Assembly: GCF_003334405.1 (NCBI RefSeq)
Contig: NZ_QOWM01000010.1
Length of the DNA: 64,000 bases
DNA from: Escherichia coli
GTDB lineage: Bacteria > Pseudomonadota > Gammaproteobacteria > Enterobacterales > Enterobacteriaceae
Reading direction: 5' to 3' (one strand)
The notes beneath the pieces were generated by a model. The model was given only the letters and a program-made list of their open reading frames with translations, was not told the DNA's origin and ran no database searches. The translations under genes were made by a program, and so were the position numbers. Below are positions 1 to 6,755 of this stretch, piece after piece; the stretch's first letter is position 1, and each line of letters opens with the position of its first letter.

Positions 1-77
1 ACACCTGCCGAACCCTGGACAATGGGACCGCCATACTGAGTCATATCTCCCTGACGCGCCGCTGGTTTTCCGCTCAT
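1..77 (-). CDS. rhsD: Rhs-family polymorphic toxin, N-terminal 26 codons only (partial; continues beyond left edge of window)
   Basis: Reverse complement of 1..77 starts with ATG at 75..77 and translates MSGKPAARQGDMTQYGGPIVQGSAGV, which I recognise as the conserved Rhs N-terminus. Position immediately downstream of ybbP on the same strand matches rhsD synteny. Too short to appear in the ORF track. Confidence 0.8.
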   Translation of the reverse strand, partial: MSGKPAARQGDMTQYGGPIVQGSAG

Positions 78-507
78 ATAAAGTGCCCTTTTAGTTATTG
101 TTCATATCCCTGTGTTAGCAACAAAAAAAAATAAAATGACACACAAGACCAGCTAATGTATTTATATATTTTTCACATAAACTTATTTGTTCTCAATCAA
201 CAACAACTGTTATTACAGGTCACTTTCAATATTTTATTAAACTAACATTTTTAGCACAGATGAATTCATCATCAACAAATTCACTATATGGATAATATCC
301 ATTCAACGCATATGATTTATGATTTTATTAGTCTGAGTTATTTTTGTAGGGCTATATTTAAAATCAATAAACTCCACCGATTCAGATTAATATCAGCAAT
401 AGAAAGATAGGAAATCACCAATTCAATAACATCATCAATGAAACATATTGTAGAATTAATTTAAACAAGGCGTTCCATTCAACCAGAACGCCCCTTATTT
501 ACTCTCA

Positions 508-2922
508 TCACCCCGCAAACTGCCTGAACAGCGCCTTACCCTTAACCAGTCGCGCACCCAGCCAGCCGCCGAAAAGCGACAGCAGCAGCGCTCCGCTGCA
601 CGGCAGAACAATCCACAATCGCCAGTCTGGCTCCCACGGAAAATCAAACACTTTCGCCTGCAACACTGCCAGCGCCGTTTCCGCACCAATTGCGGCCACC
701 AGGCCGGAAACAAACCCAAGCATGGCGAACTCACACCACAACGTGGTACGCAGCAGTTTTTTCCCCGCACCGAGTGTGCGCCACACCACCAGCTCCTGAT
801 GACGCTGACGCATTCCCACCTGCACCTGTGCCAGCAACAGCAACATACCGCAGGCGGTGACCAGTACCACCATCACTTCCAGCGCCCGACTTACCTGCTC
901 CAGCACCTGACCGACCTGTTTTAAAATCGCGCCAATATCTAACAGGCTAATGGTCGGGAACTGGCGGTTGAGTTGTGTCAACATGCCGTTGCCATTCTCC
1001 CAGCGGAAACTGGTAAGCCAGCTCTGCGGTTGCCCGTCTAATGCCCCTTCAGGGAAAATAAAATAGAAATTAGGCCGCAGACTTTCCCAGTCCACTTTGC
1101 GCAGGCTGGTCACTTTAGCGCGGAACTCCTGGGTATCGCCCATAAAAGTCACGGTATCACCGAGGGCAACGTTTAAGCGTTTCGCCAGCCCCTCTTCCAT
1201 CGACACTTCATCGGCTTTTGGCGGCCAGTTACCGGCGACAATCGGATTATGATCGGGCCGCGTATTTTGCCAGGTAAGATTGAGTTCGCGGTTAAGCGCC
1301 TCATCTTCATTACCTTCTGTCGGCTTATCGTTAATCGCCGTCAGCCGCGCCCGCACCACCGGATAAAACGATTCCGGGACTATCTGATGTTCCGCGAGGA
1401 ACGCTTTTAGCGGTGCTACCTGTTCTGTGGCGATGTTAATTAAAAAGTAGTTCGGGCTTTCTGGAGGTAGCTGCTGCTGCCAGCGGTCGAGCAGATCGCC
1501 ACGCAACACCAGCAGCAGTGCCAGCAGCATAAAGGAGAGCGAAAATGCCGAAAGCTGACTTAACGTTGACCACGGCTGACGTAACAGGCGGCTAACCGCC
1601 AGGCGCAGAGGCAGCGATTTCAGCGTCATGCGGCGAAGTACATTCAGCAGCATCCAGCCCAGCACACCGCACAGCAAAGCCAGTACTACCGCGCCCGCCA
1701 GCACCGCCCAAAGCAGCATGCTGCCACCCATTAATCCGGCGAGCAGCAGCACAACCACCACACTGACAATCGGCAGATAAAACTTCAGCGGCCAGACGTT
1801 CGCTACCACATCATTACGTAATACGCGTAAAGGCTGCGTTGCCAGCAACAAGCGATATGGTCGTAGCCCCACCAGCAGCGAGATGACCGTCATGGTGCCA
1901 AGCGCCCACAGCCACGGCCAGAGGCTGGCTGGCGGTAGTGCAGCAGGCAGAACGGGCTTGAGCAGCACCATCAACACGTTTTCGAACAACAGGCCTATGG
2001 CCCCACCGGTAACGGCTGAAAGCGTCAGCACCATCAACCACTGACCGACGATTAGCTTACGCAGTTGCGCTCGCCCTGCCCCCAGCGTTTTGAGGATCGC
2101 CACCAGATCGTAGCGACTGCGACAGTAATGATTCATCGCTACCGCCACCGCTGCCACTGCCAGCAGCAAGGTCAGAAGCGCCGAAAGCAGCAGGAACTGT
2201 TGCGAGCGTTCCATCGATCGCCCCAGCGCGCCTTCGTCCTGTTCCAGACCGTACCAGCGTTGTTCGGGTTTAAGCTGAGGTAACAACCATTTCTCATAGC
2301 CGTCGAGCTGGTTCTCGTTGCCGCCGAATTTATAACGCCAGGTGACCCGACTCCCCGGCTGCACGGCTCCGGTTTTATCGACATCCGCCAGATTCATCAT
2401 CAGACGCGGAGCCATCTGGAAGGGGTTAAAACCGGAATCCGGTTCCTGAATCACTTCTCCGGCAATCCGCAAGGTGGCATCGCCCACGTCAATGGTGTCG
2501 CCCGTTTTCAGGTTAAGCAGTGCCATCAGGCGTGGGGCCAGCAATACGCTGCCCGCCTGCGGTTTCAGGCCAGGGGGATTAGTTTGCAGATCGCCATACA
2601 TCGGGTAGATATCATCCACCGCTTTGACGTTCGCCAGCTGCGGTGTGTCGCCTGCAAAGGTCATTGTGGCGAAAGTCAGCTGCTTGCCGACTTTCAGGCC
2701 GCGCTTTTGCGCTTCCTCCAGCCACGCTTGCGGCACTTCGCGTGAACTGCGCAACGCCCGATCGCCCGCCATAAACTCACGGCTTTGCTGGCTTAAGCCC
2801 TTCTCCATGCGATCGCTGATATTGCCCAGCGCCAGCACGCAGGCCACCGCCAGGCTTAGCGCCAGCCAGACAATTAATAGCGACGGCGAACGCCATTCGC
2901 GCCAGAACCAACGTGCAATCAT
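508..2922 (-). CDS. ybbP: ABC transporter permease, FtsX/MacB-like, 804 aa
   Basis: ORF track 508..2922 (-), 804 aa with multiple hydrophobic TM stretches and large extracytoplasmic segments typical of MacB/LolE-type permeases. Start overlaps the ybbA stop by 4 nt (operon). Confidence 0.93.
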   Translation of the reverse strand: MIARWFWREWRSPSLLIVWLALSLAVACVLALGNISDRMEKGLSQQSREFMAGDRALRSSREVPQAWLEEAQKRGLKVGKQLTFATMTFAGDTPQLANVKAVDDIYPMYGDLQTNPPGLKPQAGSVLLAPRLMALLNLKTGDTIDVGDATLRIAGEVIQEPDSGFNPFQMAPRLMMNLADVDKTGAVQPGSRVTWRYKFGGNENQLDGYEKWLLPQLKPEQRWYGLEQDEGALGRSMERSQQFLLLSALLTLLLAVAAVAVAMNHYCRSRYDLVAILKTLGAGRAQLRKLIVGQWLMVLTLSAVTGGAIGLLFENVLMVLLKPVLPAALPPASLWPWLWALGTMTVISLLVGLRPYRLLLATQPLRVLRNDVVANVWPLKFYLPIVSVVVVLLLAGLMGGSMLLWAVLAGAVVLALLCGVLGWMLLNVLRRMTLKSLPLRLAVSRLLRQPWSTLSQLSAFSLSFMLLALLLVLRGDLLDRWQQQLPPESPNYFLINIATEQVAPLKAFLAEHQIVPESFYPVVRARLTAINDKPTEGNEDEALNRELNLTWQNTRPDHNPIVAGNWPPKADEVSMEEGLAKRLNVALGDTVTFMGDTQEFRAKVTSLRKVDWESLRPNFYFIFPEGALDGQPQSWLTSFRWENGNGMLTQLNRQFPTISLLDIGAILKQVGQVLEQVSRALEVMVVLVTACGMLLLLAQVQVGMRQRHQELVVWRTLGAGKKLLRTTLWCEFAMLGFVSGLVAAIGAETALAVLQAKVFDFPWEPDWRLWIVLPCSGALLLSLFGGWLGARLVKGKALFRQFAG

Positions 2923-3605
2923 GCTTCCTCCTGCAACTGCCCGTTCACCAGCCGTAAGCAGCGGTCGCAGCGTGCCGCCAGTTGCAGGTCGTGGGTCACC
3001 ATAATCAACGTGGTGCCATGTTCACGGTTGAGGGAAAACAGCAGGTCGGCAATTTTATCGCCCGTCTGGCGGTCAAGGTTGCCGGTGGGTTCGTCGGCAA
3101 ACAGCACATCAGGTCGACCATTAAAGGCTCGTGCCAGCGCCACTCGTTGCTGTTCACCGCCGGAAAGCTGTGCCGGAAGATGATCCAGACGTTTACCCAG
3201 CCCTAACTGTTCGAGCAACGCTTTCGCCCCGTTACGACTTTCCGCGCTACTCTCACCGCGCAGCAGAGCCGGAAGCTCGACGTTTTCCAGCGCGTTAAGG
3301 GTAGGAATTAACATAAATGACTGAAAAACAAAGCCGACGTGCTTCGCGCGCAACTTTGCCCGCGCTTCTTCGTCCATATTATGTAGCGGTTGTCCCACCA
3401 GACTCACTTCGCCACTGCTGCCGTCATCAAGCCCGGCGAGGATCGCCAGCAAGGTTGACTTACCCGATCCCGACTCGCCCACCAGTGCGATGGTCTCGCC
3501 ACGTTTGACAACCAGCTCAACTCCGGTGAGGATGGAGAGTTCATGCTCCCCCTGACCGACGGACTTCTTAAGATGATGAACTTCAACAATGTTTTCCGCT
3601 GGCAT
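2919..3605 (-). CDS. ybbA: ABC transporter ATP-binding protein, 228 aa
   Basis: ORF track 228 aa with Walker A GESGSGKST, ABC signature LSGGEQQR and Walker B DVLFADEP. Confidence 0.95.
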   Translation of the reverse strand: MPAENIVEVHHLKKSVGQGEHELSILTGVELVVKRGETIALVGESGSGKSTLLAILAGLDDGSSGEVSLVGQPLHNMDEEARAKLRAKHVGFVFQSFMLIPTLNALENVELPALLRGESSAESRNGAKALLEQLGLGKRLDHLPAQLSGGEQQRVALARAFNGRPDVLFADEPTGNLDRQTGDKIADLLFSLNREHGTTLIMVTHDLQLAARCDRCLRLVNGQLQEEA

Positions 3606-4199
3606 TTGCCCTTCCTGTTCCTGGTCCTGTTAACCTTCCGTGCCGCCGCAGCGGACACGTTATTGATTCTGGGTGATAGCCTGAGCGCCGGGTATCGAAT
3701 GTCTGCCAGCGCGGCCTGGCCTGCCTTGTTGAATGATAAGTGGCAGAGTAAAACGTCGGTAGTTAATGCCAGCATCAGCGGCGACACCTCGCAACAAGGA
3801 CTGGCGCGCCTTCCGGCTCTGCTGAAACAGCATCAGCCGCGTTGGGTGCTGGTTGAACTGGGCGGCAATGACGGTTTGCGTGGTTTTCAGCCACAGCAAA
3901 CCGAGCAAACGCTGCGCCAGATTTTGCAGGATGTCAAAGCCGCCAACGCTGAACCATTGTTAATGCAAATACGTCTGCCTGCAAACTATGGTCGCCGTTA
4001 TAATGAAGCCTTTAGCGCCATTTACCCCAAACTCGCCAAAGAGTTTGATGTTCCGCTGCTGCCCTTTTTTATGGAAGAGGTCTACCTCAAGCCACAATGG
4101 ATGCAGGATGACGGTATTCATCCCAACCGCGACGCCCAGCCGTTTATTGCCGACTGGATGGCGAAGCAGTTGCAGCCTTTAGTAAATCATGACTCATAA
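3573..4199 (+). CDS. tesA: Multifunctional acyl-CoA thioesterase I / protease I / lysophospholipase L1 (SGNH hydrolase), 208 aa
   Basis: ORF track 3543..4199; trimmed to the internal ATG at 3573 giving MMNFNNVFRW, a signal peptide, and the GDSLSAGY catalytic motif. 5' end overlaps the ybbA start on the opposite strand. Confidence 0.93.
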   Translation: MMNFNNVFRWHLPFLFLVLLTFRAAAADTLLILGDSLSAGYRMSASAAWPALLNDKWQSKTSVVNASISGDTSQQGLARLPALLKQHQPRWVLVELGGNDGLRGFQPQQTEQTLRQILQDVKAANAEPLLMQIRLPANYGRRYNEAFSAIYPKLAKEFDVPLLPFFMEEVYLKPQWMQDDGIHPNRDAQPFIADWMAKQLQPLVNHDS

Positions 4200-4998
4200 A
4201 GCAACGGAGATCCTGACAGGTAAAGTTATGCAAAAATCGGTCTTAATTACCGGATGTTCCAGTGGAATTGGCCTGGAAAGCGCGCTCGAATTAAAACGCC
4301 AGGGTTTTCATGTGCTGGCAGGTTGCCGGAAACCGGATGATGTTGAGCGCATGAACAGCATGGGATTTACCGGCGTGTTGATCGATCTGGATTCACCAGA
4401 AAGTGTTGATCGCGCAGCCGACGAGGTGATCGCCCTGACCGATAATTGTCTGTATGGGATCTTTAACAATGCCGGATTCGGCATGTATGGCCCCCTTTCC
4501 ACCATCAGCCGTGCGCAGATGGAACAGCAGTTTTCCGCCAACTTTTTCGGCGCACACCAGCTCACCATGCGCCTGTTACCCGCGATGTTACCGCACGGTG
4601 AAGGGCGTATTGTGATGACATCATCGGTGATGGGATTAATCTCCACGCCGGGTCGTGGCGCTTACGCGGCCAGTAAATATGCGCTGGAGGCGTGGTCAGA
4701 CGCACTGCGCATGGAGCTGCGCCACAGCGGAATTAAAGTCAGCCTGATCGAACCCGGTCCCATTCGTACTCGCTTCACCGACAACGTCAACCAGACGCAA
4801 AGTGATAAACCAGTCGAAAATCCCGGCATCGCCGCCCGCTTTACGTTGGGACCGGAAGCGGTGGTGGACAAAGTACGCCATGCTTTTATTAGCGAGAAGC
4901 CGAAGATGCGCTATCCGGTGACGCTGGTGACCTGGGCGGTAATGGTGCTTAAGCGCCTGCTGCCGGGGCGCGTGATGGACAAAATATTGCAGGGGTGA
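4189..4998 (+). CDS. ybbO: Short-chain dehydrogenase/reductase (NAD(P)-binding), 269 aa
   Basis: ORF track 269 aa; Rossmann motif TGCSSGIG and SDR catalytic YAASK. Start overlaps the tesA 3' end by 11 nt. Confidence 0.93.
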   Translation: MTHKATEILTGKVMQKSVLITGCSSGIGLESALELKRQGFHVLAGCRKPDDVERMNSMGFTGVLIDLDSPESVDRAADEVIALTDNCLYGIFNNAGFGMYGPLSTISRAQMEQQFSANFFGAHQLTMRLLPAMLPHGEGRIVMTSSVMGLISTPGRGAYAASKYALEAWSDALRMELRHSGIKVSLIEPGPIRTRFTDNVNQTQSDKPVENPGIAARFTLGPEAVVDKVRHAFISEKPKMRYPVTLVTWAVMVLKRLLPGRVMDKILQG

Positions 4999-5016
4999 GT
5001 TGAAGCGCGCGCTTAA

Positions 5017-5913
<897 letters not shown>

Positions 5914-5942
5914 TATTCCGTTGATCGGCACATGAACCACAA

Positions 5943-5968
5943 CGCCGGATGCGATGCTGCGCATCCGG
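5943..5968. terminator. REP-like GC-rich hairpin between convergent cnoX and fetB (probable bidirectional terminator)
   Basis: Inverted repeat gccggatgcg ... cgcatccggc read directly in the sequence between two convergent stop codons. Confidence 0.6.
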
Positions 5969-5975
5969 CATCGCA

Positions 5976-6755
5976 TCATTTCTTCTTCAATTGCGTCACC
6001 ACCAACTGGTGGCGCGAATTATAAAACTTACGATAGGTTAAATAGCAGGCAATAATGGTCGACAAGCTGGCGGTTGAGAGCAGCATAAAGGTCACCATAA
6101 TCTGATATTTAATCGCCTTCACCGGATCAATCCCGGCAAATATCAGCCCGGACATCATTCCTGGTAAACTCACTAAGCCAACCGTTTTTGCTGAATCGAC
6201 CGTCGGAATTAAAGCCGCGCGAATACTGTCGCGAATCAATATCGCTGAAGCCTGCTTCGGCGTCGCACCAAGACTCAGTTTCTCCTGAATCTGTTGCTGT
6301 TCGCTAATGACCCGTTGCCCTAAATTGTTGTAACACAACCCCACCGCTACCATGGCGTTACCGGCAATCATCCCGGCGATAGGGATCACCTGCATCGGGA
6401 TAAATTCAATCGACCCTGAGAGAATCAGCACCGCCAGGGTAATTCCCGCCCCGACCGTAATGGCAATAAACGATGAGATAAAAGCTTTAGCAATATATTT
6501 ACTGCGTTTTTGCGCGTTCCACGCCGCATTAAAGCAGATAAATAACACCATCAATAATGTCAGGCTGGCATCATCCACGCTGAAAATATACTTCAGCACA
6601 TAGCCGACAATAATCAGCTGAATTATCGCTCGCCCGACGCTCCAGAGAATATCTTTCTCCAGCGCCAGTTTTTCTTTATGGCTAATTAAGATTGCCACCA
6701 CCACCAGCATTAATGCCAGTGCTAATGATTCGTTAGTAATATTATGCGAGTTCAT
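5976..6755 (-). CDS. fetB: Iron-export ABC transporter permease, 259 aa
   Basis: ORF track 5976..6782; trimmed to the ATG at 6755 (MNSHNITNESLALA...). Polytopic membrane protein; its start overlaps the fetA stop. Confidence 0.9.
   Translation of the reverse strand: MNSHNITNESLALALMLVVVAILISHKEKLALEKDILWSVGRAIIQLIIVGYVLKYIFSVDDASLTLLMVLFICFNAAWNAQKRSKYIAKAFISSFIAITVGAGITLAVLILSGSIEFIPMQVIPIAGMIAGNAMVAVGLCYNNLGQRVISEQQQIQEKLSLGATPKQASAILIRDSIRAALIPTVDSAKTVGLVSLPGMMSGLIFAGIDPVKAIKYQIMVTFMLLSTASLSTIIACYLTYRKFYNSRHQLVVTQLKKK

Follow-up and report, generated by a model that had tools for sequence, protein, structure and literature searches.

Head-to-head overlap of ybbA and tesA and the expression signals embedded around it

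YbbAP, a MacB-like ATP-binding cassette (ABC) transporter of Escherichia coli, and TesA, a periplasmic lipid hydrolase, are encoded head to head on the chromosome and form one membrane complex. McAndrew et al. (bioRxiv May 2025; PLoS Biol Nov 2025, PMC12646458) co-purified a 2:1:1 YbbA2–YbbP–TesA assembly, determined three electron cryomicroscopy (cryoEM) structures (PDB 9GE6, 9GE7 and 9GE8), presented YbbP–TesA coevolution and esterase assays, and remarked on the co-location and partial overlap of the two operons and on a similar arrangement in P. aeruginosa. At the RNA level, ExcludonFinder (NAR 2025, PMC12288877) lists tesA–ybbA, without further discussion, among 16 divergent excludons of E. 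coli MG1655, the criterion being that overlapping divergent transcripts are seen in 50% or more of the 58 RNA-seq samples from E. coli.

Here we analyse this junction in a 64,000-nucleotide stretch of E. coli DNA (contig NZ_QOWM01000010.1; hereafter the window, with positions counted from its first nucleotide). The locus is E. coli ybbP–ybbA/tesA–ybbO, and K-12 MG1655 is 100% identical to the window over the ybbP–ybbA/tesA region. That region is single-copy in 5,419 of 5,426 complete E. coli genomes; two of the approximately 5,420 E. coli matches to this chromosomal locus are in plasmid-typed records. Whether the lipid hydrolase TesA is the working partner of an orphan MacB-like ABC transporter was a question that mattered. 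It was settled by the 2025 structural paper, and there is no new biology in it here: the YbbAP–TesA interpretation is supported and already known. A preliminary description of this DNA had proposed the functional and physical link and suspected that it might already be in the literature; the link is real and published (PMC12646458). What we add is the start-codon geometry, the anatomy of the embedded promoter and Shine–Dalgarno (SD) sequence, and conservation data, which are modest details and not a new kind of system. We consider it very probable that the locus encodes a YbbAP–TesA machine from interleaved head-to-head units without intergenic DNA.

The proteins and their overlapping genes

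YbbA, YbbP and TesA each score above an NCBIfam equivalog cut-off, which upholds the earlier assignment of a MacB/LolCDE-like ATPase–permease pair and an SGNH hydrolase, and the chains of PDB 9GE6–8 match the window proteins on sequence comparison. YbbA (228 residues; 2919..3605, minus strand, its ATG reading as CAT at 3603–3605 on the plus strand) was identified from its open reading frame (ORF), NCBIfam and the PDB. It scores 478.8 bits against NF007879 (cut-off 336) with residues 1–228 covered, and is identical to the 9GE6/7/8 chains (9GE6 chain B) from Pro2 onward. Its translation carries GESGSGKST and LSGGEQQR, and it has the Walker A, signature and Walker B motifs of an ABC ATPase subunit. 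YbbP (804 residues; 508..2922, minus strand) is a fused type VII (MacB/LolCDE-like) ABC permease by ORF, NCBIfam and Pfam evidence, with which RefSeq agrees. It reaches 1458 bits against NF041854 (cut-off 999) and has two FtsX domains (Pfam; residues 247–363 and 683–793); for its periplasmic part we adopt the Porter/Sabre fold of the published structure (PMC12646458). The end of ybbA overlaps the start of ybbP by 4 nt (2919–2922), the usual translational-coupling junction.

TesA, the precursor of periplasmic SGNH thioesterase I/lysophospholipase L1 (3573..4199, plus strand; ORF, NCBIfam and PDB), scores 413 bits against NF007819 (cut-off 270). Its catalytic blocks, GDS (Ser36), Gly70, Asn99 and Asp180-x-x-His183, form invariant columns in an alignment of 49 homologue sequences, and the homologues carry precomputed Pfam Lipase_GDSL_2 matches. 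The mature chains 1IVN and 9GE8_T begin at residue 27, which assigns 26 codons (3573..3650, plus strand) to the signal peptide; its sequence features are an n-region with Arg9, a hydrophobic core and the junction AAA/A.

On direct reading, the coding sequences (CDSs) of ybbA and tesA overlap head to head by 33 nt at 3573..3605 from the GenBank/UniProt tesA start at 3573 (gene 518363–518989, NC_000913.2), giving a TesA of 208 residues. The overlap is 30 nt from the RefSeq PGAP start at 3576, the conserved ATG, which gives 207 residues. The divergent 33-nt overlap of the preliminary description thus matches the coordinates under the first of these starts and becomes 30 nt under the second. Codons of the two genes are in exact antisense register: tesA Met1–Met2 (ATG-ATG) lie opposite ybbA His11–His10 (CAT CAT), and the codon for tesA His11 faces that for ybbA Met1. 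The part of tesA that overlaps ybbA encodes the loosely constrained n-region of the signal peptide. Among the ten divergent CDS pairs in the first 50 kb of the window, ybbA/tesA alone overlaps, the other nine being separated by gaps of 69–378 nt, and the overlap exceeds chance expectation.

The ybbA start leaves no choice. Nine codons upstream of its ATG is an in-frame TAA, with no start codon between the two, and the single other candidate, one codon before Walker A, is impossible. Because no other usable start codon lies between the upstream stop and Walker A, initiation at a downstream Met, which the preliminary description had named as the way in which the overlap could vanish, is excluded. 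The tesA ORF closing at 4199 on the plus strand has in-frame ATGs at 3543, 3573 and 3576, and databases call the gene with at least five different N-termini. The second ATG of the ATG-ATG pair (3576) is the sole invariant tesA start in 14 Enterobacteriaceae; Photorhabdus retains only the first.

Embedded signals and the selection on them

Kim et al. 2012 (Table S1, PMC3415461) mapped one tesA transcription start site (TSS), at NC_000913.2:519021(-), with 45 reads and a 32-nt leader. Placed on the window, the TSS is at 3541 (plus strand), 64 nt within the ybbA CDS, and the 5′ untranslated region (UTR; 3541..3572) is antisense to ybbA codons 12–22. Upstream of the mapped TSS are a −35 hexamer, TTGACA (3505..3510, plus strand, in ybbA codons 32–34), and a putative −10 hexamer, GAGGAT (3528..3533, plus strand, in ybbA codons 25–26; most relatives have AAGGAT). 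A 17-nt spacer separates them, the −10 position is correct relative to the TSS, and promoter and TSS together (TTGACA-17-GAGGAT, 3541) fall in ybbA codons 22–34. An independent 454 read of Mendoza-Vargas et al. 2009 was assigned the same TTGACA −35 box. The sequences GTTTGACAA at the −35, which includes a 4-fold degenerate site, and AGGATGGA at the −10 are invariant, and the architecture is retained in 12 of 12 Enterobacteriaceae. A strict consensus promoter scan of 3200–4000 returned no promoter because it required at least 4/6 matches per hexamer, and the actual matches are 6/6 and 3/6.

The ybbA SD sequence, AACAGGAAGG (3610..3619, minus strand), is antisense to tesA codons 13–16, which encode P-F-L-F in the hydrophobic core of the signal peptide; its AGGAAGG is antisense to codons 13–15. 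Its duplex with the anti-SD has an energy of −7.0 kcal/mol in E. coli; in relatives the values run from −4.9 to −7.0. TTCCTGTT at this site is invariant, and Vibrio and other genera have an equivalent TTCC(C/T)T motif after the tesA ATG. The preliminary description had argued that each gene's promoter and ribosome-binding site must be embedded in the 5′ coding region of the other, and this holds for the tesA promoter (mapped TSS within ybbA, hexamers in codons 25–34) and for the ybbA ribosome-binding site (antisense to signal-peptide codons).

For ybbA itself, Kim et al. 2012 (Table S1, PMC3415461) list two weak TSSs within the tesA CDS on the minus strand, at 3760 (155-nt 5′ UTR) and 3992 (387-nt 5′ UTR), both at the detection limit with 2 reads each. 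No conserved promoter was found upstream of 3760 on the minus strand. A TATAAC (4002–3997, minus strand) precedes the 3992 TSS, at a site without conservation in relatives. In the same region (3997–4004), the tesA codons for R-Y-N-E hold a perfect TATAAT on the plus strand (3999–4004). Primer extension directed at ybbA yielded no ybbA product. Wherever its promoter sits, the ybbA mRNA must be antisense to the 5′ end of tesA. A further TSS inside ybbA, at 3072 on the minus strand and 150 nt upstream of the ybbP start, has 3 reads, also at the detection limit (Kim et al. 2012, PMC3415461).

Conservation at synonymous sites was assessed in 14 Enterobacteriaceae (TesA identity 76–100%), using codons that encode the same amino acid throughout. 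Codons 12–35 of ybbA lie outside the tesA CDS and hold the promoter and leader of that gene; 8 of 16 such codons there have an invariant third base, as against 3 of 125 in codons 36–228 (Fisher p=5.7e-7). Across the ybbA SD, in tesA codons 12–20, the synonymous third base is invariant in 3 of 3, compared with 11 of 107 later codons (p=0.0017). Over the 1.28-kb stack of ybbA and tesA, 13 runs of 8 nt or more are invariant, and 8 of them fall within 3503–3619, where they coincide with the −35, the −10, the leader, ATG 3576, the ybbA ATG and the ybbA SD; the runs 3576–3586 and 3589–3606 do not vary among 12 Enterobacteriaceae. Of 5418 E. coli genomes, 5358 have an identical 99-nt junction (3522–3620), whereas flanking controls are identical in 3493 of 5419 and 3395 of 5418, counts that are approximate and phylogenetically non-independent. 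Together, these patterns argue strongly that the embedded signals are under purifying selection at synonymous sites.

Conservation of the arrangement in Gammaproteobacteria

A profile-based scan taking one genome per species yielded 80 loci, all from Gammaproteobacteria, with TesA identities of 41–100%. In 80 of 80 species a ybbA homologue is immediately upstream of tesA and divergent from it, and ybbP then follows ybbA wherever the flank permits. The preliminary description had counted a lack of synteny outside Enterobacteriaceae, a downstream ybbA start and a lack of interaction or shared phenotype as findings that would speak against it; because the synteny extends well past that family, none of these was encountered. 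Two distant TesA-like proteins (38–40% identity) have no ybbAP neighbour, and linkage is therefore a property of the sampled gammaproteobacterial orthologues and not of the whole family. A second protein search, started from the TesA of Dokdonella, brought up only close relatives of Xanthomonadales type, and the synteny data cover Gammaproteobacteria.

Start-to-start geometry was measured without recourse to annotation, from the Gly codons of Walker A and of the GDS block, with the most downstream signal-peptide-competent codon taken as a conservative tesA start; 72 loci could be scored. The start codons overlap or are at most 19 nt apart in 59 of the 72. Enterobacterales have overlaps of 30 nt (19 loci), 33 nt (2 loci), 39 nt (1 locus) and 51 nt (1 locus). 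A 2-nt overlap in which both starts share the palindrome CATG occurs in 15 loci, from Vibrio, Salinivibrio, Psychromonas, Rheinheimera, Dokdonella, Marinobacterium, Nitrincola and metagenome-assembled genomes. The distance is 0, −1 or −2 nt in eight loci (Pseudoalteromonas, Aliidiomarina, Pseudidiomarina, Bowmanella, Rheinheimera and Cycloclasticus). Eleven Pseudomonas loci have a 10–11-nt spacer that is the tesA SD itself (CAT-ggagaatccg-ATG), two loci (Oceanisphaera and Methylococcaceae) have spacers of 13 or 19 nt, and 13 loci (Aeromonas, Halomonas, Marinobacter, Methylophaga and others) have spacers of 23–163 nt. Because near-zero spacing recurs in this way, it looks ancestral, and the Enterobacterales overlap looks like an extension of the TesA signal-peptide n-region by about 10 codons into ybbA.

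The loci sharing CATG (L024, L026, L028, L030, L032–L034, L038–L040, L044, L046, L062, L070 and L078; junction near position 4500 in each) come from several gammaproteobacterial orders, and near variants of the shared start are CATATG, CATnATG and CATnnATG. Vibrio loci (L028, L033, L046 and others) have a −10-like TATAAT, TATAAC or TTTAAT within the first codons of ybbA, 10–18 nt upstream of the CATG and only some 10 nt ahead of the tesA ATG, which suggests that the tesA leader may be very short or absent in this genus. Brenneria (L015) and Pectobacterium (L017) carry a 45–48-nt insertion exactly at the overlap, with a longer YbbA N-terminus (57 codons before Walker A) and a longer TesA pre-sequence. 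The apparent overlap is at least 51 nt in Pectobacterium; in Brenneria no signal-peptide-competent tesA start was found and the overlap is uncertain. In Candidatus Pantoea persica (L023), ybbA and ybbP are present only as short fragments and the tesA match is partial (residues 2–165), and the whole ybbAP–tesA module appears to be decaying in a reduced genome.

Downstream of tesA lies ybbO (4189..4998, plus strand; ORF and NCBIfam), which encodes a short-chain dehydrogenase/reductase (SDR) aldehyde reductase and is linked to tesA in Enterobacterales only among the 80 surveyed loci. Its annotated start, ATG 4189, overlaps tesA by 11 nt and is found in only 7 of 23 Enterobacterales. ATG 4228 (Met14) is kept in 22 of the 23 and is preceded by a conserved AGGTAAAGTT; the NCBIfam SDR profile match of YbbO begins at residue 14. 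The ybbO start is probably at 4228, 28 nt past the tesA stop. An Rfam scan of window positions 1–6500 found no RNA family at E≤1.

Mechanism, alternatives and comparison with known systems

In the published complex, cytoplasmic ATP hydrolysis by YbbA2–YbbP drives periplasmic conformational changes, and TesA sits on the periplasmic domains of YbbP, its active site turned toward a membrane-proximal pocket (PMC12646458). The presumed role of the complex is to extract lysophospholipids or other acyl esters from the inner membrane and then to hydrolyse them. In the genes, the tesA sigma70 promoter and 5′ UTR are written within ybbA codons 12–34, translation of tesA would begin opposite the ybbA His10/His11 codons, and ybbA must be transcribed from further inside tesA. 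The overlap may be tolerated because the stretch of TesA set against the YbbA N-terminus, the n-region of its signal peptide, is the one under least constraint. Interlocked signals of this kind would make the junction hard to break and would therefore keep the partner genes linked. Polymerases from the tesA and ybbA promoters would be expected to converge, and the tesA and ybbA RNAs could pair over at least 65–80 nt, or about 220 nt if the 3760 TSS is real. Converging polymerases and antisense 5′ ends probably depress ybbAP relative to tesA; the read asymmetry between the tesA TSS (45) and the ybbA TSSs (2 each) is consistent with lower ybbAP expression.

Several points weigh against this account. 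The physiological substrates of the complex are so far candidates (PMC12646458), and mutual repression of the excludon type would be strange between genes whose products join in one complex. Nor is a zero spacer required, given the 13 of 72 loci with spacers of 23–163 nt and Salinicola with approximately 600 nt. The tesA ATG in use may be 3543, 3573 or 3576. Finally, for the ybbA promoter the sole TSS data are at the detection limit, and sigma70-, sigmaE- and sigma54-like elements were sought upstream of ybbA with none conserved. Two sigma70 candidates from a relaxed scan occur only in E. coli, and no sigmaE-like site was found. A sigma54-like TGGCGC-N5-TTGC (9/10; 3919–3905, minus strand) was judged a chance match because its GG dinucleotide is lost in most Enterobacteriaceae; about 0.03 matches of 9/10 are expected by chance in the scanned stretch.

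It is quite possible that the arrangement is real and yet has no effect on expression, being a neutral product of genome compaction and start-codon drift that persists only because the two genes are co-selected and seldom come apart. Spacing does vary among lineages, from +51 to −163 nt; both transcripts are of low to moderate abundance, and polymerase collisions may be rare; and no regulatory phenotype is reported (PMC12646458). Neutral drift sits less easily with the recurrence of near-zero spacing in distant orders, including the exact shared CATG in 15 species, with the strong purifying selection at synonymous sites of the embedded signals, or with the gaps of at least 69 nt that nearby divergent pairs retain. 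These points show constraint on the signals and do not by themselves show cross-talk. At the other extreme, the head-to-head layout without a spacer would be an ancient, selected regulatory device of the YbbAP–TesA module, in which the ratio of free to transporter-bound TesA is governed by the convergent promoters and antisense 5′ ends, or these cause tesA and ybbAP expression to respond reciprocally to envelope lipid stress. We regard this stronger proposal as rather unlikely.

The two remaining alternatives concern the tesA start. Translation of a near-leaderless mRNA from the in-frame ATG at 3543..3545 (plus strand), 2 nt downstream of the mapped 5′ end, would give a precursor of 218 residues and an overlap of 63 nt. 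Some pipelines do call a TesA of this length, and the longer precursor still scores as a signal peptide. We nevertheless think this start improbable: the ATG is simply the antisense of the ybbA His21 codon, it is missing in 2 of the 14 Enterobacteriaceae and also in Rahnella and Photorhabdus, and tesA is not among the leaderless mRNAs tabled by Kim et al. 2012 (PMC3415461). A strong SD-like GGAGAG (3534–3539), 4 nt before ATG 3543, leads gene callers to output the 218-residue form; it is the antisense of conserved ybbA codons for E-L-S-I-L and, being located upstream of the TSS at 3541, is absent from the tesA mRNA.

A tesA start at TTG 3606, with the CDSs abutting (0 nt), is the sole reading under which the overlap vanishes, and that the overlap is such an annotation artefact is highly improbable. 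This TTG is found in most Enterobacteriaceae and is used in some Klebsiella and Salmonella annotations (197-residue forms). Databases often carry TesA at 197 or 194 residues, and the annotated length of KPN_00472 is 594 nt; conservation of MNFNNVFRWH could stem from the YbbA N-terminus on the opposite strand. Against this, the TTG start has no SD (dG −1.5), leaves a signal peptide without a charged n-region and is missing in Citrobacter werkmanii, Pantoea, Yersinia and others, the mapped TSS gives ATG 3573 an ordinary 32-nt leader, and the embedding of promoter and ribosome-binding site persists even under the TTG start.

Interleaved units encoding one machine therefore remain our preferred description. 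The residual value of the locus is as a clean and deeply conserved case of one complex whose two genes, on opposite strands, have their promoter, 5′ UTR, ribosome-binding sites and starts interleaved. The junction could serve as a test case for transcriptional interference, it calls for caution when ybbA and tesA are recoded or given synonymous mutations, and it can guide annotation of the tesA start codon.

The nearest described system is the complex of McAndrew et al. itself: the locus and the proteins are the same, at 100% sequence identity, and at the protein level there is no difference. Their paper does not analyse the start geometry, the embedded promoter and SD or the conservation of the zero-spacer layout. 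E. coli's other ABC systems of type VII, LolCDE–LolA, MacAB–TolC and FtsEX–EnvC, have in common with YbbAP the ATPase family (in NCBIfam and the PDB, the matches ranking next for YbbA are LolD, MacB and FtsE), FtsX-type permease domains and mechanotransmission with a periplasmic partner. YbbAP differs from them in that its partner is an enzyme, an SGNH hydrolase, that YbbP is a single fused permease of ten transmembrane segments, and that the partner gene is divergent and not in the same operon.

With the divergent excludons of the Listeria paradigm, tesA–ybbA shares overlapping 5′ ends of divergent transcripts: the tesA TSS lies in the ybbA CDS, and the ybbA start (3605) and SD lie in the tesA transcript. 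Classical excludons pair opposing functions and mutually exclusive expression, whereas the products of tesA and ybbAP form one complex and the coding sequences themselves overlap. Compact divergent transcription is also a feature of bidirectional promoters, which, as Warman et al. reportedly described in 2021, are built on symmetric −10 elements from which transcripts diverge without overlap. At tesA–ybbA, by contrast, each promoter would lie downstream of the start of the other gene, such that polymerases converge and the transcripts overlap.

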